The position numbers and the translations under genes were made by a program. Positions 6,698-51,200 of a DNA stretch of 64,000 nucleotides are shown one piece after another (position 1 is the stretch's first letter; each line of letters opens with the position of its first letter). Where the stretch lies: contig JBJEXC010000002.1 of assembly GCA_051885355.1 (NCBI GenBank), positions 10,496 through 74,495 on the forward strand. The letters are read 5' to 3'. This stretch comes from Alphaproteobacteria bacterium. GTDB taxonomy: Bacteria; Pseudomonadota; Alphaproteobacteria; Rs-D84; CACZYB01. The notes beneath the pieces were generated by a model that worked only from the letters and a program-made list of their open reading frames with translations, did not search any database and had not been told where the DNA came from.

Positions 6698-7492
6698 ATG
6701 GTTAAAAATATTATTGCTATTATTAAAATAATCTTTTTTGTGCTTTGGATGATTGTGCAGATGCCTATTTTGATAATTATGCATTACACAAGGATTTTGA
6801 TGCCATGGTATGCAAAATTTTATTTTAAGGCAGTTTGTTTGATTTTAGGAATAAAAGTAAAAGTAAAGGGTGAAAAACTTTCCAATGCTAAAAAACTTCT
6901 TATCCTTTCGAATCATGCTTCGTATTTAGATATTTTTGCTTTGGGTTCCGTATTTAAAACTAACTTCGTATCAAAGGCAGATGTGAAAAAGTGGCCTTTA
7001 TTTGGCTGGATTGCATCCCTTGGCAATACTGTGTATATTACAAGGAACAGAATGGATGCAAAAAATCAGATAAATGTTCTTGATAGGGCATTTGAAAAAC
7101 GCAAACTCCCTCTTATTATTTTTCCAGAAGGAACAAGTTCTAATGGGTGTGAGGTTTTGCCTTTTAAAAGTTCTATGTTTGCGATGTTTGAAAATCAAAT
7201 AGGAAAAAAGTCCGATAGTAATATTGTAATTCAACCTGTTTCTATGGCATATGTTTCAAAAAGAGGTAAAAAAATGACTGATAGTGAAAGGCAAGCGTTT
7301 GCCTGGTGGCTTGACAGTCAGACTATCACAAATCATCTTTTTGGTGCGGTAAGGGCTATGCCTGTTGATGTAGAAGTTATTATTCACAAGCCTATTGATA
7401 TTTCTAAATTCAAAGACAGAAAAGAACTTGCTTTGTATTGTCATAATATAGTAGAATCTGGATTTAATAAACTTATAGATAAGGAGGCATAA
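6698..7492 (+). CDS. plsC: 1-acyl-sn-glycerol-3-phosphate acyltransferase
   Basis: NHASYLD (HX4D) and FPEGTSS acyltransferase motifs; N-terminal TM segment. Confidence 0.8.
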   Translation: MVKNIIAIIKIIFFVLWMIVQMPILIIMHYTRILMPWYAKFYFKAVCLILGIKVKVKGEKLSNAKKLLILSNHASYLDIFALGSVFKTNFVSKADVKKWPLFGWIASLGNTVYITRNRMDAKNQINVLDRAFEKRKLPLIIFPEGTSSNGCEVLPFKSSMFAMFENQIGKKSDSNIVIQPVSMAYVSKRGKKMTDSERQAFAWWLDSQTITNHLFGAVRAMPVDVEVIIHKPIDISKFKDRKELALYCHNIVESGFNKLIDKEA

Positions 7493-7677
7493 TGTTAGGT
7501 GGAAGTAAAAGAATTTCTATTGGAAATAACAGAAGAAGAAATCCCATTTCAAAAAAACAGATATTAATTTTGCTTGTTTTGGTTTTGATTATATTCCTAT
7601 CTGTTTGGCAAATGCCTATAAATCAAAAAACTGTGTCGGAAAATATTGAAACGCCTGTGCCAACAGAAATTAAATAA
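7492..7677 (+). CDS. small membrane protein (hypothetical)
   Basis: 61 aa ORF with one TM helix. Strong SD (aaggagg) lies inside the plsC 3' end. ATG overlaps the plsC stop (taATG). Confidence 0.35.
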   Translation: MLGGSKRISIGNNRRRNPISKKQILILLVLVLIIFLSVWQMPINQKTVSENIETPVPTEIK

Positions 7678-7682
7678 AAAAG

Positions 7683-7707
7683 GACGGTGATTACCGTCTT
7701 TTATTTT
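7683..7707. terminator. bidirectional rho-independent terminator
   Basis: gacggt-gatt-accgtc hairpin followed by ttttatttt; sits between convergent genes. Confidence 0.5.
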
Positions 7708-8003
7708 ATAAATCTTTTGTTGTTTATTTCTATTTTGCTTTTGATGGCTTCATTTAAATCTATGCCACATTTTTCAGCCAAAGCGTAAAGGTATATAGCG
7801 ACATCTGCCATTTCGTGTTTAAGAGAACTTTTATCCTCCTCTGGTGGTAATTCTTTATTATATACATATTTAGCACGAATTGCAGTCGCAAGTTCACCAA
7901 TTTCGCATGTAAGACCACAAAGAAGAAGCATTTGGTCTTCCTCATTAAAATGCCAACACTTTCTTGCATTACAAACAGTGTTTTGAATTTTTTTATCTGA
8001 CAT
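7701..8003 (-). CDS. MazG-like nucleotide pyrophosphohydrolase (small single-domain)
   Basis: 100 aa; the EIGELATAIR…EMADVAIYLYALA pattern fits the MazG/NTP-PPase helical fold. Confidence 0.65.
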   Translation of the reverse strand: MSDKKIQNTVCNARKCWHFNEEDQMLLLCGLTCEIGELATAIRAKYVYNKELPPEEDKSSLKHEMADVAIYLYALAEKCGIDLNEAIKSKIEINNKRFIK

Positions 8004-8017
8004 AGGGGCCTCCTATA

Positions 8018-8599
8018 CTATCTGCTGAAAACTTTATTAAATATATCTTCGTCACAAATAAGTCCGTTATAAACTATTTGCGGTTTGTTTGGAATACTTA
8101 AAACTTTTTTGTTTTCATGTTCTTTTTTATAAGCGTTATATATTTCCTGTGCGAAATATTGCAAATGTGATTGTTCTGGGGAAACAAATGCTTTTTTTAT
8201 AAAAAAATCAAAATTATTAAACAGATTTATAAATTTAATGACTGTTTCATTTTCTAATGGGTTTTCCCAAATTCTTTTCAATGTTGAATTTCTTTTTACT
8301 TTATAAGGGGGGTCCCATTTTGTATTTTGAACAGTTGCATAGCCATTTAGGTAAGAACTTTTATTAAAATGAAGATGTTCGAAAATTATTTCTGAGGTAT
8401 ATGCTTTATCCTTTTTATGATTATCTTTAAATCGTAGGATTGCAATTTCTGTTACCTGTTTATCATTAAAAGTAAAGGGAACTTCTCTTTCAATATCTAT
8501 ACAATATGGTCTTTTGGAATCGTAAGATGTAGGAAAAAATGCCTTTATTAAAAAATCACCTTCTTTTTTTGTTTCGGTATTATTTATTAGTAATTTCAT
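8018..8599 (-). CDS. hypothetical protein
   Basis: 193 aa ORF with no recognisable motif. Its start overlaps the proS stop by 20 nt on the same strand. Confidence 0.4.
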   Translation of the reverse strand: MKLLINNTETKKEGDFLIKAFFPTSYDSKRPYCIDIEREVPFTFNDKQVTEIAILRFKDNHKKDKAYTSEIIFEHLHFNKSSYLNGYATVQNTKWDPPYKVKRNSTLKRIWENPLENETVIKFINLFNNFDFFIKKAFVSPEQSHLQYFAQEIYNAYKKEHENKKVLSIPNKPQIVYNGLICDEDIFNKVFSR

Positions 8600-9866
8600 T
8601 TTCTATAATCTCCTTTATTTCACCTGCAATATTTGTTGTTGAAAGTTCGGATTTATATTCATTTGAAAGTCCAGAATATTTCATTTCAAATATATTTTTT
8701 TCAAGATTTTTAGGACTTATTATTGCGCGAATCGGTGCGCCAATTAAATCTGCATTTGCGAATTTGGACCCTGCTCTGTCCGCTGTTGTATCAATTATAG
8801 TAGGGACGCCAGCGGAGGTTAGTTTTTCATATAAATCATTTGCAAGGTGAAGAACCTTTTCATCATCGCCAATGGAAATTATATGAACTTTGTATGGAGC
8901 AATTGTCATATTGAAAATTGCCTTTGATTCATCTTCACTTTGTTCCAAAAGGCACGCAAGGGTGCGAGAAACACCAATACCATAGCAACCCATAATAGGG
9001 GTTTGCTTTTTGCCATCCTCATCCATATAAGTGACATTCATTGCCTTTGTATATTTATCACCAAGTTGGAAGATATTTCCAACCTCTACACCACGAAGTT
9101 TTTGAAGTTTCTTTCCACATTTTGGGCAGATTAAGATATCGTCTGCATCTTTATCAGTTAGGACTTCTTTATTTGCACGGTAATCGCAACCTTCACAAAT
9201 GTAGATAGTGTCTTCACCAATATCGGTTATCATTTGAAATTCGTGGGAAATTTTGCCCCCCATATCGCCGGTAGGAGCGAGAATATCTACAACATTTTTT
9301 AAACCTACACGTTTATAAATTACCTTGTAAATTTCAAGCATTTTATCGTAAAACTTATTCAAATCTTCCCAATCTGTGTGATATGAATATGCGTCCTTCA
9401 TCATAAATTCGCGTGTTCTGATAAGCCCTGCCCTTGCACGAAGTTCATCACGATATTTTGTTTGTATTTGATAAAGGCAAAATGGAAGTTGCTTATAACT
9501 TTGCAAAGTGGAACGAACATAATCGGAAATGATTTCTTCGTGTGTTGGATTTAAAACTGCATCAGTGCCTGCACGAGTTTTGAATTTTAATAAAACATCA
9601 ACTGTATCGAATCTTCCTGTTTCCTTCCAAATTGTGGCAGGTGATACCATAGGCATAAGTATTTCCTGACAACCAAGTTTTGATAATTCTTCGCGTATTA
9701 CTTTTTCTATATTTAAAAGTAATGTTAAGCCTAAGGAAGAATAAGTGTAAAGTCCGGCACCGGTTTGATGAACATAACCACCCTTTAATGCTAATTTATG
9801 ACCAGAGGTTGTTGCATCGGATGGAAGTTCTTTTGTTCGTTTTATGAATAAGTTTTCAATTCTCAT
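8580..9866 (-). CDS. proS: prolyl-tRNA synthetase (short alphaproteobacterial type)
   Basis: 428 aa class II aaRS with a C-terminal anticodon-binding domain; characteristic ProRS sequence. Confidence 0.85.
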   Translation of the reverse strand: MRIENLFIKRTKELPSDATTSGHKLALKGGYVHQTGAGLYTYSSLGLTLLLNIEKVIREELSKLGCQEILMPMVSPATIWKETGRFDTVDVLLKFKTRAGTDAVLNPTHEEIISDYVRSTLQSYKQLPFCLYQIQTKYRDELRARAGLIRTREFMMKDAYSYHTDWEDLNKFYDKMLEIYKVIYKRVGLKNVVDILAPTGDMGGKISHEFQMITDIGEDTIYICEGCDYRANKEVLTDKDADDILICPKCGKKLQKLRGVEVGNIFQLGDKYTKAMNVTYMDEDGKKQTPIMGCYGIGVSRTLACLLEQSEDESKAIFNMTIAPYKVHIISIGDDEKVLHLANDLYEKLTSAGVPTIIDTTADRAGSKFANADLIGAPIRAIISPKNLEKNIFEMKYSGLSNEYKSELSTTNIAGEIKEIIENEITNK

Positions 9867-10054
9867 TATCTTGTTTGTCCCTTAACAATTCTTTCTATTT
9901 CATTGTAATATTCTTTTTTTACTTTTTTACAAATATCTTTCATATATTCTTGATTTTCAAAGCAGTTTTGAACGCATGGATAATACATACGACCATCATA
10001 TTCAGGACATTTATGCACAAAACTATTTAATTCTAAACTTGATATTTTTTTCAT
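9866..10054 (-). CDS. small cysteine-containing protein (twin Cx10C)
   Basis: 62 aa ORF between infA and proS, with its stop overlapping the proS start. Contains CPEYDGRMYYPC and CFENQEYMKDIC. Confidence 0.4.
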   Translation of the reverse strand: MKKISSLELNSFVHKCPEYDGRMYYPCVQNCFENQEYMKDICKKVKKEYYNEIERIVKGQTR

Positions 10055-10055
10055 T

Positions 10056-10304
10056 TTATAATTCTTCCTTTATTGTTCCTTGTTTATCTTTGTAGCGGAA
10101 AGTTATACGACCCTTTGTTAAATCGTATGGTGTCATTTCGATATTTACGACATCACCTACCATAACCCAGATTCTAAACTTTCTCATTTTCCCAGCGGTA
10201 TGGGCAATAACTGTATGACCGTTTTCAAGTTCAACTTTGAACATTGCGTTTGGAAGTTTATCAATAACTGTTCCTTTGAATTCTAATAATTCTTCTTTAT
10301 CCAT
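10056..10304 (-). CDS. infA: translation initiation factor IF-1
   Basis: S1-like OB-fold sequence [37 protein letters not shown]…GD. Confidence 0.9.
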
Positions 10305-37483: not shown

Positions 37484-39910
37484 ATGTTAAAATTATTTGC
37501 TGAAAAATTTGGTATGGGGGGGGGTAAAAACCCTGTAAAATCAAATAGTTACAAAAACTTTGCAATCTGTCTTTGTTTAATATTTTTTATATCTCTAACT
37601 ATATTTGCTTTGTCTGGTTCTGTGAATGCGGCAAGAAATGTTAGAGGTAACAGAAATGGTGGTGTTAAAAAAACAAGTGGGGCAAAGAAAGCAGGTAATG
37701 TTAATAAATCTAATAGTAGTTCAAATAAATCTATACCTGTAAATGCTAATAGGAAGGCTAGAGCGGCTGTTACTAATAAAAGGTCTGCGACTTCAGGTAA
37801 TGCAAAAAGGGCTGGCGTTTCTGGAAATGTTAGAAAGGCTAGAGTGGTTTCTGCTAGAAAGACTGTTAATAATAGGGCGTTAAGAGGAAAAATAAAAGCC
37901 GAAGAGGAAGCAAGTTTGGAAGAGACAGAAACTTTATCCTCAGAAGTAGTAAATAAGATGTCTGAACATGATAGAAAATTTAAAAAATTAGCTGAGTTGA
38001 AAGGTTTGGCAAACGACTGTCCTGTTGAAAAGGCTCTTGGTAGAAAAATTGATGAAGATGGTGATGAATTTTTCTATACAGGAAAAGAACCTTTTAATGG
38101 AGAAAATTTTTGTGATGAAAGACTTATATTATCTAATCAAATTGCTGATTTATATAAATGGAAAGAAAGTGACAAAGAAAAATATCCTAGGGGTAGTTTG
38201 GATGATAGTGATGAAATTTTTTATTTTAAATGTAAGGAAGGTTATGTTGCTAAAAATAACAGTGATGGTATAAGGACTTGTGTATCAGTTTGTCCTTTGA
38301 ATGTTGCTTTGGAAAAAAGTGCAAGTTATGAAGATAAATATATTTCTCCAACAAATGGTTTGATTTGTTCTGTTCCAGCAAATTCAAAAGCAAGACTTGT
38401 CAAAGATGGTGAAAATACAAGAAGTGATTTGGATGATGAAAATGCTTATATAGTAGAATGTAATGCAAATAAATATTCTGCTGTGTTAGATGGTTCTGAT
38501 TCGGAAGTGCATTATCAATGTTTGACTTGTCCAAGTGGGTATGTGTCCTCTGCTGGTGCAAAATCTGTTGCTGAATGTAAGGAAGAATGTAAAGGGGATA
38601 AGATTAAACTTGATGATGGAAGTTGTGTTGCTTGTGATGCGAATGCTTCTGTATCGGGTAATTCCTGTATCTGTAAAGATGGTTATTATGGTAAGGGATA
38701 TGGAACTGATGGATGTGTGACTTGTCCTTCTGGATATGTATGTTCTGGTGGTGAAAAGAAATCCAAATATGTAAGTGAACAGGCGGAAGAAACATCATCC
38801 AATGAACAACAATCTTGTCCAGAGGGTTCAAAACCTTCCTCTGATGGCACAACTTGTGTTTGTGATGATAGTAATTATACTTTTGATTCAAAATCCAATA
38901 GTTGTGTGGAAAAAGTTTGTGGTTCAAATGAAGTTAAAATGTCAGATGGAACTTGTAAAGCAATATCTAGTTTGGTTGCATCTGAATTTAACAGAGTTGC
39001 CACAGGAAAATCTGGTAATTCCAATTGTCCAACTGGTGATTTGGAGGCTGGTGTCTACTTAGTTACACTTAAAGGTGGTAATGGTGGAAACAGCGGTAGT
39101 AGTGGAAAAAATAAGGCTGGTCAAACAGAGAAAGATGTTTCCGGTGGAAAGGGTGCAAAATTGCAATATGTATTTAAGTTGAGTAAAAATGCAACTTTTG
39201 AAATTTGTGCCGGTGAAAATGGTAAATTGCCTGCTGATACAGATTCTCCAAATGAAGGAGGCGGTGGCGGTGGTGGATCATGGCTTAACATTAATTCACC
39301 TGAATTTTCTGGCGATGTCTACTTTGTTGCCGGTGGTGGTGGCGGTGCATCCGCAGACTATGCTGGTCAAGACGGCGGTGGCGGCGGTGGCGGCGGCGGT
39401 ATTGGTGCCGGTGGTGCTGCTGGTGAAGGTAAAGGTTATAGTTATGGTGGTTACGGTGGTATGAGTGGAAAATACCCTGGTGGAGTATACAAGCAATATA
39501 ATGATAATAATAAAAGTGGTGTAACAAAACTTTACGGTTACATACCTGATATTGCGAAGGGTTTAAATGACAGTAATCCGCTTTTGATGGGTGATTCTGG
39601 TAGAAGCGGTGGTGGTGCCGGTGGTGGAAATGGTGGTGACGGTGGTGACGGTCAAGAATGGTTTGGTAACGCTAATTGTGCAAAGGGTGCTGTTGCAAAT
39701 ATAGATACTATAAACATTATTGACTTTGACGGTAAAGTTACAAAGCAAAGCCAACAATACGGTGGTAAAGGTGGTGTTGCTTGTCAAGCCTCTCACCATA
39801 GAGCCGGATATGATGGTGAAAGTTCACATATTTCGAATATAAACCTTTCGAATTTATGTGGTGGAAGCAATAAGGCTGATGCCTGTGCTGAACTTTACAA
39901 GTTAAAATAA
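37484..39910 (+). CDS. large secreted/anchored protein: basic low-complexity region, Cys-rich ephrin-receptor/TNFR-like repeats, C-terminal polyglycine-rich (ALK/LTK GlyR-like) domain
   Basis: 808 aa. TM/signal segment at aa 26-48, then a K/R/N-rich stretch. More than 40 Cys in CxxCPSGY-type repeats, for example TCVTCPSGYVCSGG. The C-terminus has G6-G10 runs spaced by short beta-like strands (YVFKLSKNATFEICAGENGK / EGGGGGGGSW / VYFVAGGGGGAS / GGGGGGGGGIGAGG). Confidence 0.6.
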   Translation: MLKLFAEKFGMGGGKNPVKSNSYKNFAICLCLIFFISLTIFALSGSVNAARNVRGNRNGGVKKTSGAKKAGNVNKSNSSSNKSIPVNANRKARAAVTNKRSATSGNAKRAGVSGNVRKARVVSARKTVNNRALRGKIKAEEEASLEETETLSSEVVNKMSEHDRKFKKLAELKGLANDCPVEKALGRKIDEDGDEFFYTGKEPFNGENFCDERLILSNQIADLYKWKESDKEKYPRGSLDDSDEIFYFKCKEGYVAKNNSDGIRTCVSVCPLNVALEKSASYEDKYISPTNGLICSVPANSKARLVKDGENTRSDLDDENAYIVECNANKYSAVLDGSDSEVHYQCLTCPSGYVSSAGAKSVAECKEECKGDKIKLDDGSCVACDANASVSGNSCICKDGYYGKGYGTDGCVTCPSGYVCSGGEKKSKYVSEQAEETSSNEQQSCPEGSKPSSDGTTCVCDDSNYTFDSKSNSCVEKVCGSNEVKMSDGTCKAISSLVASEFNRVATGKSGNSNCPTGDLEAGVYLVTLKGGNGGNSGSSGKNKAGQTEKDVSGGKGAKLQYVFKLSKNATFEICAGENGKLPADTDSPNEGGGGGGGSWLNINSPEFSGDVYFVAGGGGGASADYAGQDGGGGGGGGGIGAGGAAGEGKGYSYGGYGGMSGKYPGGVYKQYNDNNKSGVTKLYGYIPDIAKGLNDSNPLLMGDSGRSGGGAGGGNGGDGGDGQEWFGNANCAKGAVANIDTINIIDFDGKVTKQSQQYGGKGGVACQASHHRAGYDGESSHISNINLSNLCGGSNKADACAELYKLK
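37516..37524 (+). repeat. G9 homopolymeric tract in the 5' coding region
   Basis: atGGGGGGGGGt encodes MGGGK; nine consecutive G in an ~30% GC genome. Confidence 0.8.
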
Positions 39911-41089: not shown

Positions 41090-41983
41090 ATGAGTGCGAA
41101 ATTGCTTGATGGGAAAAAAACTTCTTTGAAATATATGGAATCTTTTAAATCTTTGATTGAAAAGGTAAAATTAAAGTATAAAAAAGTTCCTTTGCTTACT
41201 GTTGTGTTGGTTGGGGAAAATCCTGCCTCTCTTATTTATGTGAAAAATAAGCGCAAAAGATGTGCGGAAATAGGAATTAAATCCGAGGTTATACATTTAT
41301 CAAAAGATGTCAGTCAAAAGGAGCTTTTGAAAATCATTTCTAAATTGAATAAGAATAAAAAGGTAAATGGAATTTTGGTGCAACTTCCTCTTCCTTCGCA
41401 TATTGATGAAAGTTCTGTAATAAATGCGGTGAGTCCAGAAAAGGATGTTGATGGATTTAATGTTGTAAATAAAGGTAAATTGGCGGTAGGGGATGTGACA
41501 GGTTTTATTCCTTGCACTCCATTTGGGATTTTAAAACTTCTTAAACATTATAAAGTAAAAATAGAAGGGAAAAATGTTGTTATTTTGGGGCGTTCTCTTA
41601 TTGTGGGGAAGCCTATGGCGGAATTGATGCTTCAAAACAATGCGACTGTCACTATTTGCCACAGTAGGACTAAAAATCTTAAGGAGATTGCCAAAAATGC
41701 GGATATAATTATATCTGCGATGGGGGTTAAGGCTGGTATGATTAATGCAAGTTATGTAAAAGAGGGATGTGTAGTTGTTGATGTTGCTATGATAAGGAAT
41801 TTTGAAACAAACAAACTTGCAGGTGATGTGGATTTTAAATCTGTGTCAAAGGTTGCATCATATATTACACCTGTTCCTGGTGGTGTGGGACCTATGACTA
41901 TTGCAATGTTAATGGGTAATACTATAAAGGCTTTTTTAACACAAAATAATATAGAAAATGAGGATACACAAGTTCAAATATAA
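41090..41983 (+). CDS. folD: bifunctional methylenetetrahydrofolate dehydrogenase/cyclohydrolase
   Basis: 297 aa; FolD-typical sequence (…VILGRSLIVGKPMAELML…TVTICHSRTKNL…). Confidence 0.9.
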   Translation: MSAKLLDGKKTSLKYMESFKSLIEKVKLKYKKVPLLTVVLVGENPASLIYVKNKRKRCAEIGIKSEVIHLSKDVSQKELLKIISKLNKNKKVNGILVQLPLPSHIDESSVINAVSPEKDVDGFNVVNKGKLAVGDVTGFIPCTPFGILKLLKHYKVKIEGKNVVILGRSLIVGKPMAELMLQNNATVTICHSRTKNLKEIAKNADIIISAMGVKAGMINASYVKEGCVVVDVAMIRNFETNKLAGDVDFKSVSKVASYITPVPGGVGPMTIAMLMGNTIKAFLTQNNIENEDTQVQI

Positions 41984-43823
41984 ACTTTCTAATGGAGCGA
42001 AGTCGTTTCATTGTGGACCTGCTTATCATAAAAAGATAAGGGGGTTTAAATATACGAAAGGTATTTGGGGTAAGGTGTTTTATTATTTTGTTTGTTGTGG
42101 AATATGGGTTGGAATAATTTTATCTGTTGTGCTTCTTTATTTGGCTTTGACCCTTCCTAATATTGAGCATATTACTAATCAGACGCGTAAGCCAAGTATT
42201 ACAATAGTTGATAGAAATAATCAGAAAATTACTTCTATTAATGATATTTATGGTGAAACAGTAGAGGTGGAAAGTCTTCCTCCTCATATTTGGCAGGCAA
42301 TTGTGGCGGTGGAGGATAAAAGGTTTTATTCTCATTTTGGTGTGGATATTAAGGGACTTTTTCGTGCGGTGGTTAATAATATAAGAAAGAGTCGTGCTGC
42401 ACAAGGGGGAAGCACTATTACTCAGCAAGTGGCGAAAAATGTTTTTCTTTCCAGCGAAAGGTCTATTAGTCGTAAGATACAGGAAGTTATGATAACTTTT
42501 TGGCTTGAGCATAAATTTACGAAAAATCAGATATTATCGTTGTATTTGAATAGAGTTTCTCTTGTAGGTGGAAAGTATGGAATTGCAAATGCGGCGGAGG
42601 CTTTGTTTAATAAATCTGTTTATGATATAAATGTTGCGGAGGCGGCAATACTTGCTGGTATGTTGAAGGCACCAACAAGACTTAATCCTATGAATAATCC
42701 GGAGGCTTCTCTTAATAGGGCGAAAATTGTGATTTCCCTTATGAAGGAGCAAAATTATATAACAGATTCCCAGTATGAAGAGGCTATGAAGTATCAATAT
42801 GTGGCTCCATCAAATAAGCATAATTTGGTAAGGTATTATATTGATTATACCTTGAATGAGATGAATTCTTTGGTAAGTGATTTTTCAAAGGATATAGTGA
42901 TACATACAACTTTAGATAATAATATACAGAAGACGGCGGAAAATGTTGCAAAAACCTATATGGAAAAAAATGGGGAAAGATATAATTTTTCTCAGGTTGC
43001 TATGGTTGTTATGAATACGGACGGAAATATTCTTGCGATGATTGGGGGAAAGGATTATACACAAAGTCAGTTTAATAGGACTAATCAAATGAAGCGTCAA
43101 CCTGGGTCTGCGTTTAAACCTTTTGTTTATTTGGCTGCACTTGAAAAGGGATTTAAGCCGACGGATATGTTTGAGGATAAGTTGACGACTATTGAAAATT
43201 GGACGCCGAAAAATCATGATGAAAAGTATATTGGGGCTATTTCTATGGCTGATGCACTTGAAAAATCGGTTAATACGGTGCCTGTGCAAATTGCAAAGCA
43301 GATAGGGCTTAAAAGCATAATTGCTATGGCGAGAAAACTTGGACTTATTGATAGAATTAGTAATGATTATACTATTATACTTGGAACTTCGGAAACAACA
43401 CTTCTTGACTTGACTTCGGCTTATGCTACTTTTGCGAATAAGGGGTATGGGGTGATTCCTCATTCTATTGTAAAGATAACTGATGCAAGTGGAAATGTTA
43501 TTTATGAGCGAAGTGGAAGTGGTGTTGGAAAACTTCTTTCTAATCAAGAAGTGGAAAATATGAATTATATGTTAAGACGCGTTATACAAGGGGGAACTGG
43601 TGCAAATGCAAATATATATGGGACATATATTTGTGGAAAGACTGGGACAAGTCAGAATAATAGAGATGCTTGGTTTATAGGGTATTCGCCTGATTATATT
43701 GCTGGGGTATGGATAGGTAATGATAATAATGAAGCGATGAGTAATTCCAGTTATGGTGGAACAATTCCAGCAAAGATATTTAAGGCTATTATGAGTTATA
43801 TTATAAGTACTAATCCTTCTTAA
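41958..43823 (+). CDS. mrcA: class A penicillin-binding protein (bifunctional transglycosylase/transpeptidase; short PBP1A-like)
   Basis: GT51 motifs EDKRFYSHFG and GGSTITQQ; transpeptidase SAFK, SVN and KTGT. The N-terminal TM overlaps the folD 3' end. Confidence 0.8.
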   Translation: MRIHKFKYKLSNGAKSFHCGPAYHKKIRGFKYTKGIWGKVFYYFVCCGIWVGIILSVVLLYLALTLPNIEHITNQTRKPSITIVDRNNQKITSINDIYGETVEVESLPPHIWQAIVAVEDKRFYSHFGVDIKGLFRAVVNNIRKSRAAQGGSTITQQVAKNVFLSSERSISRKIQEVMITFWLEHKFTKNQILSLYLNRVSLVGGKYGIANAAEALFNKSVYDINVAEAAILAGMLKAPTRLNPMNNPEASLNRAKIVISLMKEQNYITDSQYEEAMKYQYVAPSNKHNLVRYYIDYTLNEMNSLVSDFSKDIVIHTTLDNNIQKTAENVAKTYMEKNGERYNFSQVAMVVMNTDGNILAMIGGKDYTQSQFNRTNQMKRQPGSAFKPFVYLAALEKGFKPTDMFEDKLTTIENWTPKNHDEKYIGAISMADALEKSVNTVPVQIAKQIGLKSIIAMARKLGLIDRISNDYTIILGTSETTLLDLTSAYATFANKGYGVIPHSIVKITDASGNVIYERSGSGVGKLLSNQEVENMNYMLRRVIQGGTGANANIYGTYICGKTGTSQNNRDAWFIGYSPDYIAGVWIGNDNNEAMSNSSYGGTIPAKIFKAIMSYIISTNPS

Positions 43824-44841
43824 AAAGATGTAGCAATTTTATATACCATGGGTCCTTTGTTTGGGCTTGAAGTTCTCTTAAAAAAGGTTCTAATAGATGA
43901 TAGTTTTTCATCCTTTTAAGTTTATTTAATGTTTTTAAGAAATTTTTGTAATCGGAATGCCATGGTTTCCAGCAAGTATAGATATTAAAATCTTGAGACA
44001 TTTGGGAATTGCTCCAGTTGTCCATTCTCCAAAATAAAGCGGTAGCATTGTATTTGTTTGCCATTTTTACGAAAGCAGGCATTTCTTTGTAATTTAGGGA
44101 ATGTATTACAAAGTTGAAATTGATTTCTGTATTATTTAAAGATTTTATATATTCTAAATTTTGTAAAAGTTGTTCCCATTTTCCACCACGAACAATTTTT
44201 TCGTAGGTTTCTTTTGTTGCAGAGTGAATTGATATGGATATCTCTTTTATTTTTCCTTCTAATCCAATTTCTTTGATATTTTTTTTGTTAAATAAAAGTC
44301 CGTTAGTGCTTAATTCAAATTTTAGATGCGGATATTTATCTGTTAATTTTTTGATAAGGTTTTTTGAATGAGGGCTGGTTAAAAATTCACCACACCCATT
44401 CATATAAATAATTTCTGCATTTTTACATATATCAATGATTTTATCAGTGAAATTGTTAAGATATTCGGTTTCTTGTTTTGTTTCGCAAGTGATATTATCT
44501 CTACACATCATACATCTTACATTACATGAGTCAGTATGACTTAGATAGACTTTTTTTGGATATGGTGGTTTTAGTAAAGTTTCCATTTCTTTTTTGCTTA
44601 AATTTTCTTTATCAAATTCGCAAAATTGGGAGCATTTTTTAAGATTGCAATATTTGTAAGATTTATCTAATATAGATTTTCTAAATTCTATTGCTTTATC
44701 ACCATACCATATTTCCTCAAATGAATTTTCAAAAAAGTTACCTAGGCAATAGTGGTTGTTGTATGCAGAGCAACAAAAGTAGACATATCCACCTGCCTCT
44801 ATAATAACATTTTCGAATGGAAATTTACAATATGTCTTCAT
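43810..44841 (-). CDS. radical SAM protein with N-terminal SPASM-like Cys-rich domain
   Basis: CNVRCMMC (CX3CX2C) at about aa 106. The N-terminal 100 aa contain CKFPFENVIIEAGGYVYFCC…GNFFENSFEEIWYG…C..C…C, a SPASM/twitch-like pattern. Located 12 bp downstream of mnmG. Confidence 0.65.
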   Translation of the reverse strand: MKTYCKFPFENVIIEAGGYVYFCCSAYNNHYCLGNFFENSFEEIWYGDKAIEFRKSILDKSYKYCNLKKCSQFCEFDKENLSKKEMETLLKPPYPKKVYLSHTDSCNVRCMMCRDNITCETKQETEYLNNFTDKIIDICKNAEIIYMNGCGEFLTSPHSKNLIKKLTDKYPHLKFELSTNGLLFNKKNIKEIGLEGKIKEISISIHSATKETYEKIVRGGKWEQLLQNLEYIKSLNNTEINFNFVIHSLNYKEMPAFVKMANKYNATALFWRMDNWSNSQMSQDFNIYTCWKPWHSDYKNFLKTLNKLKRMKNYHLLEPFLRELQAQTKDPWYIKLLHLFKKD

Positions 44842-44853
44842 TTTTCCCCTTTG

Positions 44854-46695
44854 TTATTTCTTAACATACTTTAGAAGGGATGTCAAGGCGGCAGGGGTTA
44901 TTCCAGGTATTCGTGAAGCAGAGGCAAGAGTTTCTGGTTTTGTAGTTTTAAGTTTGTTTTTTACCTCTAATGTAAGACCGCCTATTTTATCATAATTAAT
45001 GTTTGCTGGGATTTTTAGGCTTTGATCTTTTTTGTATGCCTCTATATCCTTTTCTTGTCGTTTAAGATAGCCTTGATATTTACCCTCTATTTCAATTTGT
45101 TTTACGATAGAATTTTCAAAGGTATCAATTTTTGGGAAAAGTTTTCTTAATACTACCATATCAATTTCAGCATAGCGGAGGGCATCGTATAAATTTTTTC
45201 CGGCGATGCCTGCGACATTGATATTGACACTTTTAAGTAGTTTAAGATTTAGTTTGTGGGAGGTTAAGAATTTTTTAAAATCCTCCATCTTTTTAATTTT
45301 TTCATTAAAAAAGCCGGCTCTTTTGTTACTTACTACACCAATTTTGATACCGATAGGGGTTAGTCGTTGGTCGGCGTTGTCCGCCCTTATAGAAAGGCGA
45401 TATTCGGAGCGGGAGGTGAACATTCGGTATGGCTCATCTACACCAAGGGTTGTAATATCATCAACTAAGACACCAATATAAGCTTGGGAACGATCAAGTG
45501 TGATTTCATCACAACCCTTTGCGAAAAGTCCGGCATTGATACCGGCGAGTATTCCCTGTGAAGCGGCCTCTTCGTATCCGCTGGTGCCATTTATTTGACC
45601 GGCAAAGTAAAGTCCCTTTATTCGTTTAGAACCCAAAGTTGGTTTTAATTCTCTTGCATCAATTGCATCGTATTCAATTGCGTATCCATAGCGAAGAATT
45701 TTTACATTTTCCAAACCCTTTATAGAGTGGATAAAGTCTTCTTGCACATCCTTTGGAAGGGAAGTTGAAATACCGTTTGGATAAATGACATCGGAGCCAT
45801 AACCTTCTTGTTCCAAAAATATATGATGAGATTCGTGATGGGCGAATCTGACAACTTTATCCTCTATACTTGGGCAATATCTAGGTCCAATAGATTTTAT
45901 TTGTCCGTTATAAAGTGGGGTTCGGTCCTTATTATCAGTAATAATTTTATGGGTTTTGAGATTTGTATAAGTGATGTAGCAAGGAAGCATTTCTTGACTT
46001 ATTTTTTCGGTCATATATGAAAAAGCCTCTGGCACTTCATCACTTTCTTGGCATTCAAGTTCGGAGTAATTAATAGTTTTTTTTGAAAGGCGAGCAGGGG
46101 TTCCAGTTTTAAGTCGTAAAATGGAAAAGCCGGCTTTTTTGAGCGATTCTGTTATTCCGTAGGAGGCATTTTCACCAATTCTTCCACCTATGGTTTTTTC
46201 CTCTCCCGTATGCATAATGCCATTTAAAAATGTTCCGGTTGTAAGGACAACTGACTTACAATCTATTTGTCTTTTGGATTTTAAAACAACACCATTTACA
46301 GATGAAAAATCGTTATTAAATAAGATTTCAATAACTTCATCTTCTATTATATCAAGGGTTTTATATTCTGATAGAATTTCGTTGACTGCTTTTTTATAAA
46401 GGGTTCTGTCTGCTTGTGCTCGAGGGCCTTGGACTGCGGCACCCTTTGATGCGTTAAGGACACGAAATTGGGTTCCGGCTTTATCAATAGCCCTTGCCAT
46501 AACACCATCTAAAGCATCAATTTCACGGACAAGATGACCTTTCCCCAAACCACCGATAGATGGGTTACAACTCATTTCGCCAATATTTCCTTTTGAAAAA
46601 GTTATAAGGGCGGTTTTTTGCCCTAATCTTGCAGAAGCACTTGCTGCTTCAATACCTGCATGTCCGGCACCGACAACAACTACATCGTATTCCAT
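44854..46695 (-). CDS. mnmG: tRNA uridine 5-carboxymethylaminomethyl modification enzyme MnmG (GidA)
   Basis: 613 aa; FAD-binding YDVVVVGAGHAG; characteristic MnmG sequence. Confidence 0.9.
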   Translation of the reverse strand: MEYDVVVVGAGHAGIEAASASARLGQKTALITFSKGNIGEMSCNPSIGGLGKGHLVREIDALDGVMARAIDKAGTQFRVLNASKGAAVQGPRAQADRTLYKKAVNEILSEYKTLDIIEDEVIEILFNNDFSSVNGVVLKSKRQIDCKSVVLTTGTFLNGIMHTGEEKTIGGRIGENASYGITESLKKAGFSILRLKTGTPARLSKKTINYSELECQESDEVPEAFSYMTEKISQEMLPCYITYTNLKTHKIITDNKDRTPLYNGQIKSIGPRYCPSIEDKVVRFAHHESHHIFLEQEGYGSDVIYPNGISTSLPKDVQEDFIHSIKGLENVKILRYGYAIEYDAIDARELKPTLGSKRIKGLYFAGQINGTSGYEEAASQGILAGINAGLFAKGCDEITLDRSQAYIGVLVDDITTLGVDEPYRMFTSRSEYRLSIRADNADQRLTPIGIKIGVVSNKRAGFFNEKIKKMEDFKKFLTSHKLNLKLLKSVNINVAGIAGKNLYDALRYAEIDMVVLRKLFPKIDTFENSIVKQIEIEGKYQGYLKRQEKDIEAYKKDQSLKIPANINYDKIGGLTLEVKNKLKTTKPETLASASRIPGITPAALTSLLKYVKK

Positions 46696-46715: not shown

Positions 46716-47399
46716 TTATTTAGTATTAGATACTATTATATCCTTAATTTTTAAAATATCATTAACTTTATCAATAATTGCGATAGGATTTTCTTTTTTT
46801 AGCATATTTTTATTTTCTGGAATTTCATAGCAAACGCCTATACCCATTCCATTTAAGTTTTTTGCAAGTTGTATATCTTTTTTACTATCGCCAACAGTAA
46901 AAATTTGTTCTGTTTTATCAATGCCTGATTCATTCATCATATAATGAACAGGAATAGGTGAAGGTTTATCGTTTATGAATCTTCCTGCCAGTGTGCCAAT
47001 TACATTTATAAAGTATTTTCGAATGTTTAAATATTTTAGAAGTTCGGAGGTAGATTCTGTATCTCTGCTTGTGCAAACCATAAGTTTATAATCAAGTTCA
47101 AATAAAATTTTTAATAAGTTTTCAATATTTGGAAAAAGTTTTATTTGATTGTAGAATTCCTTGGTCATTTCTATTTGTATAATGTCGGGTATGATTTGTT
47201 TTTCATAAATTTCTTTTTGAGTTTCCAAATCTATACCATCAAAAAGTTCTTTGTCTTTCCAGACGGAGTGAATTTCTTTTAAACCTTCTATTGTTTTAAA
47301 GGAAAGTTTTAAATTATTAATAACAGAGGCAGTTGCCCATGCGAGTGGATATTCTCTTTCAACCAAAGTTCCGTCCATATCAAATACGACAACTGTCAT
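46716..47399 (-). CDS. HAD-superfamily hydrolase
   Basis: DMDGT motif I (VVVFDMDGTLVE) and C-terminal GDSKKD motif. Confidence 0.6.
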   Translation of the reverse strand: MTVVVFDMDGTLVEREYPLAWATASVINNLKLSFKTIEGLKEIHSVWKDKELFDGIDLETQKEIYEKQIIPDIIQIEMTKEFYNQIKLFPNIENLLKILFELDYKLMVCTSRDTESTSELLKYLNIRKYFINVIGTLAGRFINDKPSPIPVHYMMNESGIDKTEQIFTVGDSKKDIQLAKNLNGMGIGVCYEIPENKNMLKKENPIAIIDKVNDILKIKDIIVSNTK

Positions 47400-47404
47400 T
47401 TTAA

Positions 47405-48175
47405 TTATCTTTCGTTTATTAAAGAATCTATTATTTGTGGAATTTGTTTTATATCATCTGTTGATGAAAGTATTGCATTTGGTTTATGAAGTTTTATTTC
47501 TTCAAGAGTAGTTATATCACCATAACCAACGCCTATTGTTTTCATACCTGCATCATGTCCCATTTTTATATCGCCTGATGTATCGCCAATCATAACTGAT
47601 TTTTCAAGTGGGATGCCAAGTTCTTGTGAAATATAATTTACGATTTGGGTATGTGGTTTATCCTTGAAATGTTTACCACCTTCGGTTGCTTCTACTATAT
47701 CAAAATATGAAAATAGTGCTTCGCGTTTTAAAATTTTTATTATAGAATATAAATCACGGGAGGAAGCAATAGCCAATTTTATATTTGTTTTTGCAAGTTG
47801 CTTTATTACCTCACGCATACCATTGTAAAGTTTTACTTGATTAAGAAATTCTTCCTGATTGCATAATTTTGTGCTAAGTGGAGAAAATTTGTTATGAAAT
47901 ATAGATAGTTGTTCGTTAAAATCTTTTCCCCAACCTATATACTTACTTAATGCTAAAGAGTAGACTTTTTTTGCAATTTGTTCTGTGTATGGAAGTTTTA
48001 GTATATCCATTGCTTTTTTGTTAAGGTTTAGGAACATAGCGTTACTGTGAACTAATGTTTCATCAAAATCGAAAACGACAAGTTTTTCTTCTTTATGTTG
48101 TGGTGTGTTTAGTTCATAAATACTTTTTCCAGCAAATTTGTTTCTTAAATATTTATCTTTTTCTGTTGCATTCAT
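47405..48175 (-). CDS. HAD-superfamily hydrolase (phosphatase-like)
   Basis: DFDET motif I and GDTSGD motif; in tandem with the previous HAD gene. Confidence 0.6.
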   Translation of the reverse strand: MNATEKDKYLRNKFAGKSIYELNTPQHKEEKLVVFDFDETLVHSNAMFLNLNKKAMDILKLPYTEQIAKKVYSLALSKYIGWGKDFNEQLSIFHNKFSPLSTKLCNQEEFLNQVKLYNGMREVIKQLAKTNIKLAIASSRDLYSIIKILKREALFSYFDIVEATEGGKHFKDKPHTQIVNYISQELGIPLEKSVMIGDTSGDIKMGHDAGMKTIGVGYGDITTLEEIKLHKPNAILSSTDDIKQIPQIIDSLINER

Positions 48176-48233
48176 TTTGTAATCCTACTAATATATTATT
48201 ATTAAAATTTATACAAAATATTAAACAAAGGAA

Positions 48234-51200
48234 ATGATTATGTCAAGTAAAAATTATCCAGAAACTATGTCAAAACCAAATTTCCCTGAAATAGAGGAAA
48301 AAATTCTTGCTTTTTGGAATAAAGAGAAGATTTTTGAACGTTCTGTTGATGAGCGTGATGAGAAGAATGAGTTTGTTTTTTATGATGGTCCTCCGTTTGC
48401 AAATGGGCTTCCTCACTATGGTCATGTGTTGCAAAGTTATACAAAGGATACTGTTGCCCGTTATCAAACTATGAAGGGGAAAAAAGTTAATCGTCGTTGG
48501 GGATGGGATTGCCATGGGCTTCCTCCGGAACTTAAAACCGAAAAGGATTTAGGTATAAGTGGTAAAAAAGCGATAGAAGAGTATGGTGTTGATAAATTTA
48601 CTGATAAATGTGGGTGTGATGTTTTAACCTATGCTAATAATTGGAAGGGAATTATCAACAGACTTGGTCGCTGGGTTGATATGGAAAATGCTTATAAAAC
48701 TATGGATAAAGAGTATTCTGAAAGTATTATGTGGGCCTTTAAAACTCTTTATGAAAAGGGACTTCTTTATGAAGATTTTCGTATTCTTCCATATTCTTGG
48801 GCGGCGGAAACTCCTCTTTCTAATTTTGAGGTTAATCAAGGGTATAAGGATAAAACTGATACTACTGCGACAGTAAAGTTTAAGTTGGAAAATGGGCTTA
48901 CACTTCTTGTGTGGACTACTACCCCTTGGACTTTGCCATCAAATTTGATGCTTGCAACAGGAGCGGATATTGAATATACAATCTTTGAGCGTGATGGTGA
49001 GAAGTTGGTTCTTGCAACTGCTCGTGTTCCTGCTTATAAGAAAGAATTAGAGGGTGCCACACCAACAGGCACAATTATGGGTTCAGAATTGAAGGGAATT
49101 CATTATACTCCACTTTTCCCATATTTTGAAAATTATCGTAATGAATATGATACTTTTCAGGTATTAAATGGGGATTTTGTTTCAACAGAGGATGGAACAG
49201 GTATAGTGCATATTGCTCCTGGGTTTGGTGAAGACGATTTTGCACTTTGTAAGAATTTTAATCCAAACTTTCCTATACTTTGTCCTGTGGATTCCACTGG
49301 AAGTTTTAATGCAGAAGTGAAGGATTTTAAGGGCAAGCAAGTTTTTGAAACTAACGATGAAATACTTGCAAGGTTGAAGGCTGAAAATAAATTATTTAAA
49401 AAAGACCAAATGGTTCACTCCTATCCATTTTGTTGGAGGACTGACAAGCCACTTATTTATAAAGCAATGAGTTCTTGGTTCGTCCGTGTGTCTGATATAA
49501 AGGATAAGTTGATTGAGGCAAATCAATCTATTACCTGGATTCCTGAGCATATTAAAAATGGTCGTTTTGGTAAATGGTTGGAGGGAGCAAGAGATTGGTC
49601 AATTTCTCGTAACCGTTTCTGGGGTGCACCAATTCCAGTTTGGAAATCGGATAATCCAGAATATCCAAGGATTGATGTGTTTGGTTCAATTGCTGAACTT
49701 GAAAAGGCAAGTGGTATGAAGGTGGAAAATCTTCATCGTCCACACATTGATAAAATTACATATAAAAATCCAGATGATCCAACAGGAAAATCTATGATGG
49801 TTCGTGTTCCTGATGTCTTTGATTGTTGGTTTGAAAGTGGAAGTATGCCATTTGCATCTTGCCATTATCCATTTGAAAACAAAGATTGGTTTGAAAAGAA
49901 TTTCCCAGCCGATTTTATTACAGAGGCGACAGACCAAACTCGTGGTTGGTTTTATACTCTTGTTGTGATGGGGGTTGCTTTGTTTGGAAAGGCTCCATTT
50001 AAAACTTGTGTATGCTCTGGTTTTGTTTTTGATGAAAAAGGGCAGAAGTTATCAAAAAAGCTGGGTAATTACTCTGAGCCAACAGAATTTTTCAATAAAT
50101 ATGGCTCTGATGCGTTCCGCTGGCTTCTTCTTTCATCTCCACTTTTAAGAGGGGAGATTGCTCGTATTTCGAAAGAGGGGGTTGAAGTTGCAACTACTGC
50201 AAGAAAATCTCAAATACCATTTTATAATGCGTATCATTTCTTTACTTTGTATGCGAATGCTGATGATATAAAGGCGGTTTATGATTTATCTTCTGATAAC
50301 ATAATGGATAGATATATAACTGCAAAACTTGATGAATTAAAGGAAAGTGCAAGTTTGACGCTTGATAAATATGATATTGCGACTTTCTGCACTAAGGTTG
50401 AAAAGTTCCTTGATATACTTAACAATTGGTATATTCGTCAAAGTCGTGAAAGATTTTGGGGAACAAGTGTTGATAGGGCTACTCAGCAAAAGGCCTTTAA
50501 TACACTTTATTCCGTTCTTATTGATTTATGTAAGATAATGGCTCCGCTTATGCCATTTATAACTGACTTTGTGTATAAAAATTTGACAGGTGAAGATTCT
50601 GTGCATTTGGCTATGTATCCTCAATCAAGTGGTAAGTTTGATAAGGATTTGATTGAGGCTATGGATATGGTGCAAGATGTTTGTTCCGCAGTGAAAAATA
50701 TTCGTGAGGAAGTGGGCATACGCAATCGCCAACCTTTATCCTCTATGACTGTTGCATCGCCAAAGGAGGAAATTTTAAAACCATATTCTGATATTATAAA
50801 GGCTGAATCTAATGTAAAGGAGATAGTCTTTACTGATGATATTGATAAGTATGCAAAGAAACTTCTTTACATTTATACACCTATTGTTGGAAAGAGGTTA
50901 GGTAGAGCGTTGGCTGAAATTCAAAAATCTGCGAAGGCGAATGATTACAAAATTGAAAATGGCGTTTGTAAGATTGCAGGGTATGAACTTACCCCAGATG
51001 AATTTGAAATTAGGGTTGAAATTTTGGGTGATGTAAAGGGTAGGGCGACATCTGATAATTCGGCTGTTGTTATACTTGATACAAAAATTACACCAGAACT
51101 TCAAGTAGAAGGAATAATCCGTGATTTCATTCGTGCGATACAAGAAGAAAGAAAATCGCGTGATTATAATGTTTCTGACAGGATTGAACTTTCATATTAT

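Follow-up and report, generated by a model that had tools for sequence, protein, structure and literature searches.

The 64,000-nucleotide stretch analyzed here (hereafter the window; part of contig JBJEXC010000002.1 of the Alphaproteobacteria bacterium assembly GCA_051885355.1) encodes a radical S-adenosylmethionine (SAM) protein whose auxiliary iron-sulfur domain precedes its catalytic core. The gene is a complete open reading frame (ORF) on the minus strand (43810..44841), with an ATG start, 343 codons, and a stop. We are highly confident of the architecture and cluster assignment of its product, namely an N-terminal Twitch domain with one predicted auxiliary cluster, a linker, a radical SAM core, and a C-terminal extension. 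With respect to function, we put at about even the chance that the protein is a BtrN-like radical enzyme that uses two predicted [4Fe-4S] clusters to tailor sugars or glycans. The original prediction, made by a model from this DNA alone, had described a radical SAM enzyme with an N-terminal SPASM-like domain and had hinted at a role in RNA or peptide modification.

The N-terminal domain comprises residues 5-70 (44632..44829, minus strand), with C5, C23, C65, and C70 as the proposed cluster ligands. It matched the Pfam SPASM model PF13186 almost from end to end (model positions 1-66 of 67) with a score of 46.3 bits, compared to a gathering threshold of 21.5 (E = 5e-12). In an alignment of 37 homologues extending down to 28% identity, the four cysteines were invariant together with G18 and G34, and C24 was conserved at ≥90%. 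Across 144 family domains from cluster representatives, C5, C23, C65, and C70 were 97-99% conserved; this conservation did not extend to C32 and C74. Of the SPASM signature, the first half is retained as C5-x12-G18-x4-C23, and the CX2CX5CX3C half has shrunk to C65-x4-C70, such that the protein lacks the seven-cysteine, two-cluster SPASM motif (CX9-15GX4C...CX2CX5CX3C...C). Because only four N-terminal cysteines are invariant, the domain is, judged by its sequence, a single-cluster Twitch domain of the BtrN kind rather than a two-cluster SPASM domain, with cluster binding predicted. Twitch domains, as in BtrN, hold by definition one auxiliary [4Fe-4S] cluster. In line with this, a search of Protein Data Bank (PDB) sequences aligned residues 5-62 with residues 169-226 of BtrN (4m7s), in its Twitch domain. 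The SPASM-like domain of the original prediction is therefore real in location but Twitch in type: among the models through which its domains were to be localized, PF04055 and PF13186 exceeded their thresholds, whereas the SPASM model TIGR04085 scored 18.1 against a cut-off of 27.

A variable linker (residues 71-95; 44557..44631, minus strand), indel-rich and poorly conserved in the alignment, runs from this domain to a conserved P95. In an AlphaFold2 model of the protein, the Twitch domain forms a β-hairpin (residues 11-14 and 19-21) followed by helices (residues 41-58), and linker residues 71-80 are the least confident internal block (pLDDT 71). The classical position of SPASM and Twitch domains is C-terminal to the core; here the domain at residues 5-70 instead precedes a core at residues 101-260.

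The radical SAM core forms a partial TIM barrel (residues 101-260; 44062..44541, minus strand) and matched PF04055 at 48.5 bits, above the gathering threshold, which confirms that the protein is a radical SAM enzyme. The CX3CX2C motif predicted near residue 106 was also confirmed: it reads C106-N-V-R-C110-M-M-C113, is followed by a conserved R114-D115 (44503..44526, minus strand), and its three cysteines were 100% conserved among the 144 family domains. The core further holds a GxGE SAM-binding motif (G151-E152) and the invariant residues N180, S204, N228, and N250. Overall, the residues that are invariant or near-invariant family-wide, i.e., R54, R114, G151, S156, N180, S204, Y213, N228, N250, and H295, are intact in the window protein. 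The last of these, 89% conserved, lies in a C-terminal helical extension (residues 266-343; 43813..44046, minus strand) that was delimited from the alignment and the modelled helices; this extension had no Pfam match and is likely either to close the barrel or to bind substrate. The additional cysteine pairs noted earlier in the C-terminal half were not borne out, since C119, C139, C150, and C290 are scattered single residues that are unconserved across the family. The best fold matches (SkfB, BlsE, NifB, viperin, MoaA, and DesII) all cover the core only, and no solved structure among the matches extends over both the N-terminal domain and the core.

The odd domain order is the sole point that would favor an assembly or annotation artefact, either a frameshift fusion of two genes, as the original prediction had allowed for, or a decaying pseudogene. 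We regard such an artefact as extremely improbable. The protein is 100% identical to a database entry (P0001, "MAG: radical SAM protein [Alphaproteobacteria bacterium]"), and an identical 343-aa protein is present on a second, independently assembled contig. A sequence search retrieved 70 homologues; the first 60 are approximately 320-390 aa long, two longer members have additional domains, and a precomputed PF13186 plus PF04055 architecture is recorded for all except four of these 60. Homologues at 84%, at 81%, and down to approximately 30% identity are about 340 aa long with unchanged domain order. Moreover, 144 of the 148 sequences scanned (the window protein and the 147 top cluster representatives) spanned the whole profile, the catalytic residues of the window protein are all intact, and its complete chain was modelled as a single confident globule (mean pLDDT 92.5, pTM 0.88). 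The length and domain order shared by homologues and cluster representatives exclude a fusion of two genes.

We also found that the N-terminal-Twitch layout has already been catalogued by NCBI curators and is not a new architecture. The NCBIfam model NF033640 ("N_Twi_rSAM, twitch domain-containing radical SAM protein") aligned to residues 2-308 of the window protein (model positions 2-328 of 398), but its score of 71.2 bits fell below the cut-off of 170. Scores were likewise below the cut-off for all four relatives tested, i.e., the fusion proteins P0078, P0098, and P0139 and a protein encoded on Paracoccus plasmid pPZ01. In contrast, a positive control from Methylomagnum ishizawai scored 174.4 bits, with Pfam SPASM at residues 32-94 and Radical_SAM at residues 140-299. 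Given the scores under the cut-off for the window protein and four relatives, we assign the protein on profile scores to a sister family of NF033640 that has no model of its own among the models matched. A family profile searched against 1.84 billion cluster representatives at E ≤ 1e-30 recovered at least 2,585 proteins of this sister family (50%-identity clusters), and nearly all of the best 150 matches spanned the profile from about position 3 to about position 330. Thus, the arrangement that had been called permuted and unusual does place the auxiliary domain before the core and is rarely discussed, but it is shared with NF033640. Literature searches on the N-terminal Twitch/SPASM radical SAM layout returned no paper describing such an enzyme, and we found no characterized member of the sister family. 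No homologue of the protein was detected in a phage collection, and PADLOC anti-phage defence models (pVip and others) gave no match at E ≤ 0.01. Radical SAM genes on a Brachyspira plasmid were dropped as family members, as they matched only the core (residues 81-262).

Relatives of the window protein point toward glycans. We scanned 20 over-length family representatives with Pfam: class-I methyltransferase domains were present in six; an FkbM methyltransferase, a polysaccharide pyruvyl transferase, a GT2 plus GT4 pair, and a GT1 domain occur in one each; approximately six are tandem fusions of two radical SAM proteins; and the remainder have no additional Pfam domain. The gene for a relative with 33% identity (P0059) forms a tandem pair with a second copy within a classic ABC-transporter-dependent GDP-heptose polysaccharide cluster, which also encodes an RmlD-like reductase, Wzm/Wzt, a 1190-aa methyltransferase-glycosyltransferase, a GHMP kinase, a SIS isomerase, and an NTP-transferase/HAD protein. 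The homologue on plasmid pPZ01 of Paracoccus zhejiangensis (29.5% identity, 89% coverage) adjoins genes for a GT25 and another glycosyltransferase and lies near a nucleotide-sugar dehydrogenase gene. The Methylomagnum member of NF033640 sits among GT2 and GT4 genes, an ABC transporter, and a methyltransferase. In addition, a second alphaproteobacterial copy of the gene is separated from kdsA by a single small ORF. The clearest glycan context found for the family, at locus L068 (617-12341), is the arrangement described for P0059, with two tandem genes for N-terminal-Twitch radical SAM proteins (447 and 506 aa) in a Wzm/Wzt GDP-heptose cluster.

On the basis of these family associations, and because the structures closest to the core include enzymes that act on nucleotides or nucleotide-sugars, we tentatively propose a sugar as the substrate, either nucleotide-activated or within an envelope glycan such as lipopolysaccharide or another polysaccharide; we put this assignment at slightly short of even odds. 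In the proposed mechanism, the cluster held by C106, C110, and C113 would bind SAM and cleave it reductively, and the resulting 5'-deoxyadenosyl radical would abstract a hydrogen from the substrate. The Twitch cluster is predicted to be fully ligated by C5, C23, C65, and C70; since four protein ligands would leave no open iron site for substrate, this cluster most likely serves as an electron relay or acceptor, as proposed for BtrN, rather than in substrate binding as in MoaA, whose auxiliary cluster binds substrate through an open iron site. The linker of approximately 25 residues would allow the Twitch domain to swing back across the open face of the partial TIM barrel and, in the geometry that we infer, to occupy the position held by the C-terminal Twitch domain in BtrN. 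An electron relay would favor a redox-type transformation, i.e., a net oxidation (dehydrogenation to a keto-sugar) or a related epimerization, dehydration, or decarboxylation; alternatively, the reaction may be a redox-neutral rearrangement through a radical and a keto intermediate.

Several observations weigh against a role in glycan tailoring. No glycosyltransferase or sugar-nucleotide gene lies beside the radical SAM gene in the window or in its closest relatives, and the genes around it are of a housekeeping nature (mnmG, HAD phosphatases, PBP1A, folD, grpE, and ileS). The glycan evidence comes from relatives with at most 33% identity or from fusion proteins in metagenomic clusters, and the methyltransferase fusions are also compatible with substrates other than sugars. 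Furthermore, no experimentally characterized member was found in the literature on the N-terminal-Twitch layout.

Most enzymes of the SPASM/Twitch domain family are peptide or protein maturases, and the NCBIfam matches of the window protein include metalloenzyme maturase models, although all score far below their cut-offs. We therefore considered that the protein may be a maturase that installs a crosslink, an epimerization, or a similar modification on a ribosomal peptide or protein, and judged this to be very improbable. A precursor gene would not fit on either side: the gap to the upstream gene is 12 nt and the downstream end overlaps the neighboring PBP1A gene by 14 bp. No conserved small ORF was found beside homologues among 64 loci, a negative outcome for the check for nearby precursor-peptide ORFs that the original prediction had called for, and no RRE/PqqD-like domain matched the protein at E ≤ 1. 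The predicted single auxiliary cluster and the glycan clusters in the neighborhoods of relatives also argue against a maturase. An ORF of 79-99 aa beside a kdsA-linked copy of the gene was rejected as a precursor peptide, as it occurs in one species only and has no homologue in the window.

In the window, the radical SAM gene follows mnmG (44854..46695, minus strand), which lies directly upstream and is a bona fide mnmG by its TIGR00136 score (816.7 bits; cut-off, 524.85). This gene ends in a TAA stop codon at 44854-44856, and exactly 12 nt separate that codon from the ATG of the radical SAM gene, as the original prediction had stated; the 12-nt spacer (44842..44853, minus strand) includes an AGGGG ribosome-binding site at 44850-44846. 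Co-transcription of the two genes, which had also been proposed, is supported by their shared direction, the short gap, and the lack of any terminator-like site between them on the minus strand. Two HAD-IA phosphatase genes (47405-48175 and 46716-47399, minus strand), whose Gph/PpaX matches are below cut-off, head the apparent operon HAD-HAD-mnmG-radical SAM, with intergenic gaps of 5, 20, and 12 nt; this arrangement is kept in relatives. The best sigma-70-like site, TTGACA-17-TAATAT (48218..48246, minus strand), is a candidate operon promoter identified by consensus match only. The operon is divergent from ileS and convergent with the PBP1A gene. The 3' ends of the PBP1A gene (41958-43823, plus strand) and the radical SAM gene overlap by 14 bp (43810-43823); this convergent overlap leaves no place for an intergenic terminator between them. 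The tandem HAD-IA paralogues (46716-48175) score under all equivalog cut-offs and are represented by a single copy in the relatives L008 and L010.

The same order, mnmG and then the radical SAM gene, was observed in all related alphaproteobacterial metagenome-assembled genomes (MAGs) that we found, whose samples were associated with humans (Hadza), deer, and other animals; the genes are co-directional in every member of this clade and separated by 12-24 nt. This position gives some grounds for a tRNA enzyme acting downstream of MnmEG on the wobble uridine, for example in an anaerobic conversion of 5-carboxymethylaminomethyl(2-thio)uridine to 5-aminomethyl(2-thio)uridine (cmnm5(s2)U to nm5(s2)U), in which case the protein would be a functional counterpart, though not an orthologue, of MnmL (YtqA/YhcC), itself a radical SAM enzyme. 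There is precedent for such a replacement: MnmL/YhcC stands in anaerobically for the O2-dependent MnmC, which is absent from over half of the surveyed genomes that encode MnmAEG (bioRxiv 10.1101/2023.12.21.572861; 10.64898/2026.05.18.725915). The hosts of the window family are gut anaerobes. In Gastranaerophilales, moreover, the closest copies found by tblastn (39-42% identity) lie between a gene for a Vut_1 (PF02592) transporter and a convergent trmFO. We take Vut_1 proteins to be YhhQ-like queuosine-precursor transporters. We observed genes flanked in this way in six loci (L024, L025, L027, L028, L030, and L031), around locus positions 7200-10300.

Set against this, the linkage to mnmG is limited to one clade of gut Alphaproteobacteria, which also shares the ileS-HAD-mnmG synteny; it therefore represents a single inherited arrangement and counts as one evolutionary event. 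Conservation of the mnmG adjacency in relatives, which the original prediction had proposed to check, holds within this clade and is confined to it. The second adjacency to a GidA-family tRNA enzyme, trmFO, is weak evidence and may reflect chance, because it amounts to one event per phylum and the two genes are convergent rather than co-transcribed. Further copies of the radical SAM gene in the same alphaproteobacterial genomes lie in unrelated contexts, i.e., after a UPF0102 gene and one small ORF away from kdsA. The fusions within the family involve glycosyltransferases, a pyruvyl transferase, and generic methyltransferases, and no RNA-modification domain was present among the Pfam matches to the 20 fused proteins. 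The MnmL family model, presumably TIGR01212, was not among the 25 NCBIfam matches listed for the window protein (for three others, E > 0.0036). The isoelectric points of the protein and of MnmG are 8.8 and 8.9, respectively, which is uninformative given that the host genome is K-rich and of low GC content.

The rate at which the gene diverges is also unlike that of a conserved tRNA enzyme. Across loci L017-L022, the radical SAM proteins share 43-58% identity with the window protein, compared to 78-92% for MnmG, and reach 79% in the closest locus, L017. For example, MnmG and the radical SAM protein are 91.7% and 56% identical to those of the window in L020, 81.6% and 45-47% in L021, and 78% and 43% in L022. 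The slot after mnmG holds one, two, or three tandem radical SAM genes, and is a hotspot that accumulates one to three rapidly diverging paralogues in a pattern that looks like diversifying or turnover evolution. We consider a tRNA enzyme acting downstream of MnmEG very improbable. The broader proposal, that the clade beside the GidA-family genes mnmG and trmFO is a new tRNA uridine-modifying radical SAM enzyme equipped with a Twitch domain, is slightly more doubtful still. If it were true, it would provide a third, non-orthologous anaerobic route in the xnm5U34 pathway or another uridine-C5 pathway, beside MnmC and MnmL. The link to mnmG is probably positional, reflecting inherited gene order, rather than functional. 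The clade-limited linkage and fast divergence, together with the lack of an RRE or precursor and the glycan-type fusions and neighborhoods, leave the originally hinted RNA or peptide role weak. Rapid divergence and variation in copy number resemble the diversification of surface structures more than housekeeping, which is consistent with the preferred role in tailoring sugars or glycans.

We also surveyed the distribution of the family by scanning species-representative genomes from a 14-sequence alignment. Outside Alphaproteobacteria, the family was found almost only in Gastranaerophilales/Melainabacteria gut MAGs, with a few additional bins labelled Muribaculaceae or Bacteroidales, and there were several paralogues per genome. 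A rough neighbor-joining tree placed the alphaproteobacterial clade within the diversity of Gastranaerophilales, which suggests horizontal transfer of the gene between gut Alphaproteobacteria and Gastranaerophilales. A 17-kb locus of Gastranaerophilales RGIG4109 (L040) contains ten paralogues encoding radical SAM proteins with N-terminal cysteines, four from the main family and six from a subfamily that we call C1. The latter keeps the C...CC...C..C N-terminal pattern and the CX3CX2C motif, and has no Pfam SPASM score. A C1 neighbor cluster present in 23 of 48 loci was rejected as a conserved partner of the family, as it is itself a divergent paralogue that shares the N-terminal cysteine pattern and the CX3CX2C motif.

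These findings draw attention to a family of at least 2,585 clusters for which we found no dedicated model or solved structure among the matches and no characterized member. Tandem paralogue arrays of this family diverge rapidly in the Alphaproteobacteria and Gastranaerophilales of animal guts; if its members do tailor envelope glycans by radical chemistry, uncultured gut bacteria would have in them a source of surface-sugar diversity that has gone unstudied. An N-terminal Twitch domain would additionally provide a useful natural test of how the auxiliary-cluster position at the barrel can be reached from either end of the chain. Elsewhere in the window (37484-39910, plus strand), we observed a gene for an 808-aa protein with a basic K/R/N-rich N-terminus, CxxCPSGYV-like cysteine-rich repeats, and a glycine-rich C-terminal half; it had no Pfam match. 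The orthologous slot in close relatives encodes proteins of 558-620 aa with PF21722 (Gly_rich_2), and the length of the product in this slot therefore varies between near-identical genomes.

Among known systems, the closest in layout is NF033640, which has the same order of a Twitch/SPASM-like cysteine domain, a linker, and a radical SAM core; its members are longer (approximately 400-500 aa, compared to 343 aa for the window protein) and likewise have no function assigned. MnmL, the only precedent that gives meaning to a position beside mnmG, resembles the window protein as a radical SAM enzyme of approximately 330 aa that is functionally tied to MnmEG in anaerobes. It differs in belonging to another radical SAM subgroup, the Elongator-like megacluster, and in clustering with mnmM rather than mnmG; to our knowledge, MnmL contains no Twitch domain. 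BlsE, DesII, viperin, and MoaA, which act on nucleotides or nucleotide-sugars, align over approximately 200-225 of the 343 residues at 15-21% identity, and none of them has an N-terminal auxiliary domain. For the auxiliary domain itself, the nearest counterpart is the founding Twitch enzyme, BtrN (2-deoxy-scyllo-inosamine dehydrogenase; PDB 4M7S/4M7T), with whose Twitch cysteines C5 and C23 align. BtrN holds one auxiliary cluster with four cysteine ligands and acts on a sugar-like small molecule, and the mechanism proposed above is modelled on this enzyme. The two proteins differ in that the Twitch domain is C-terminal in BtrN and N-terminal here, in the spacing of the second cysteine pair (CX4C here, presumably CX2C in BtrN), and in their cores, which are only distantly related (core domain E of approximately 670).

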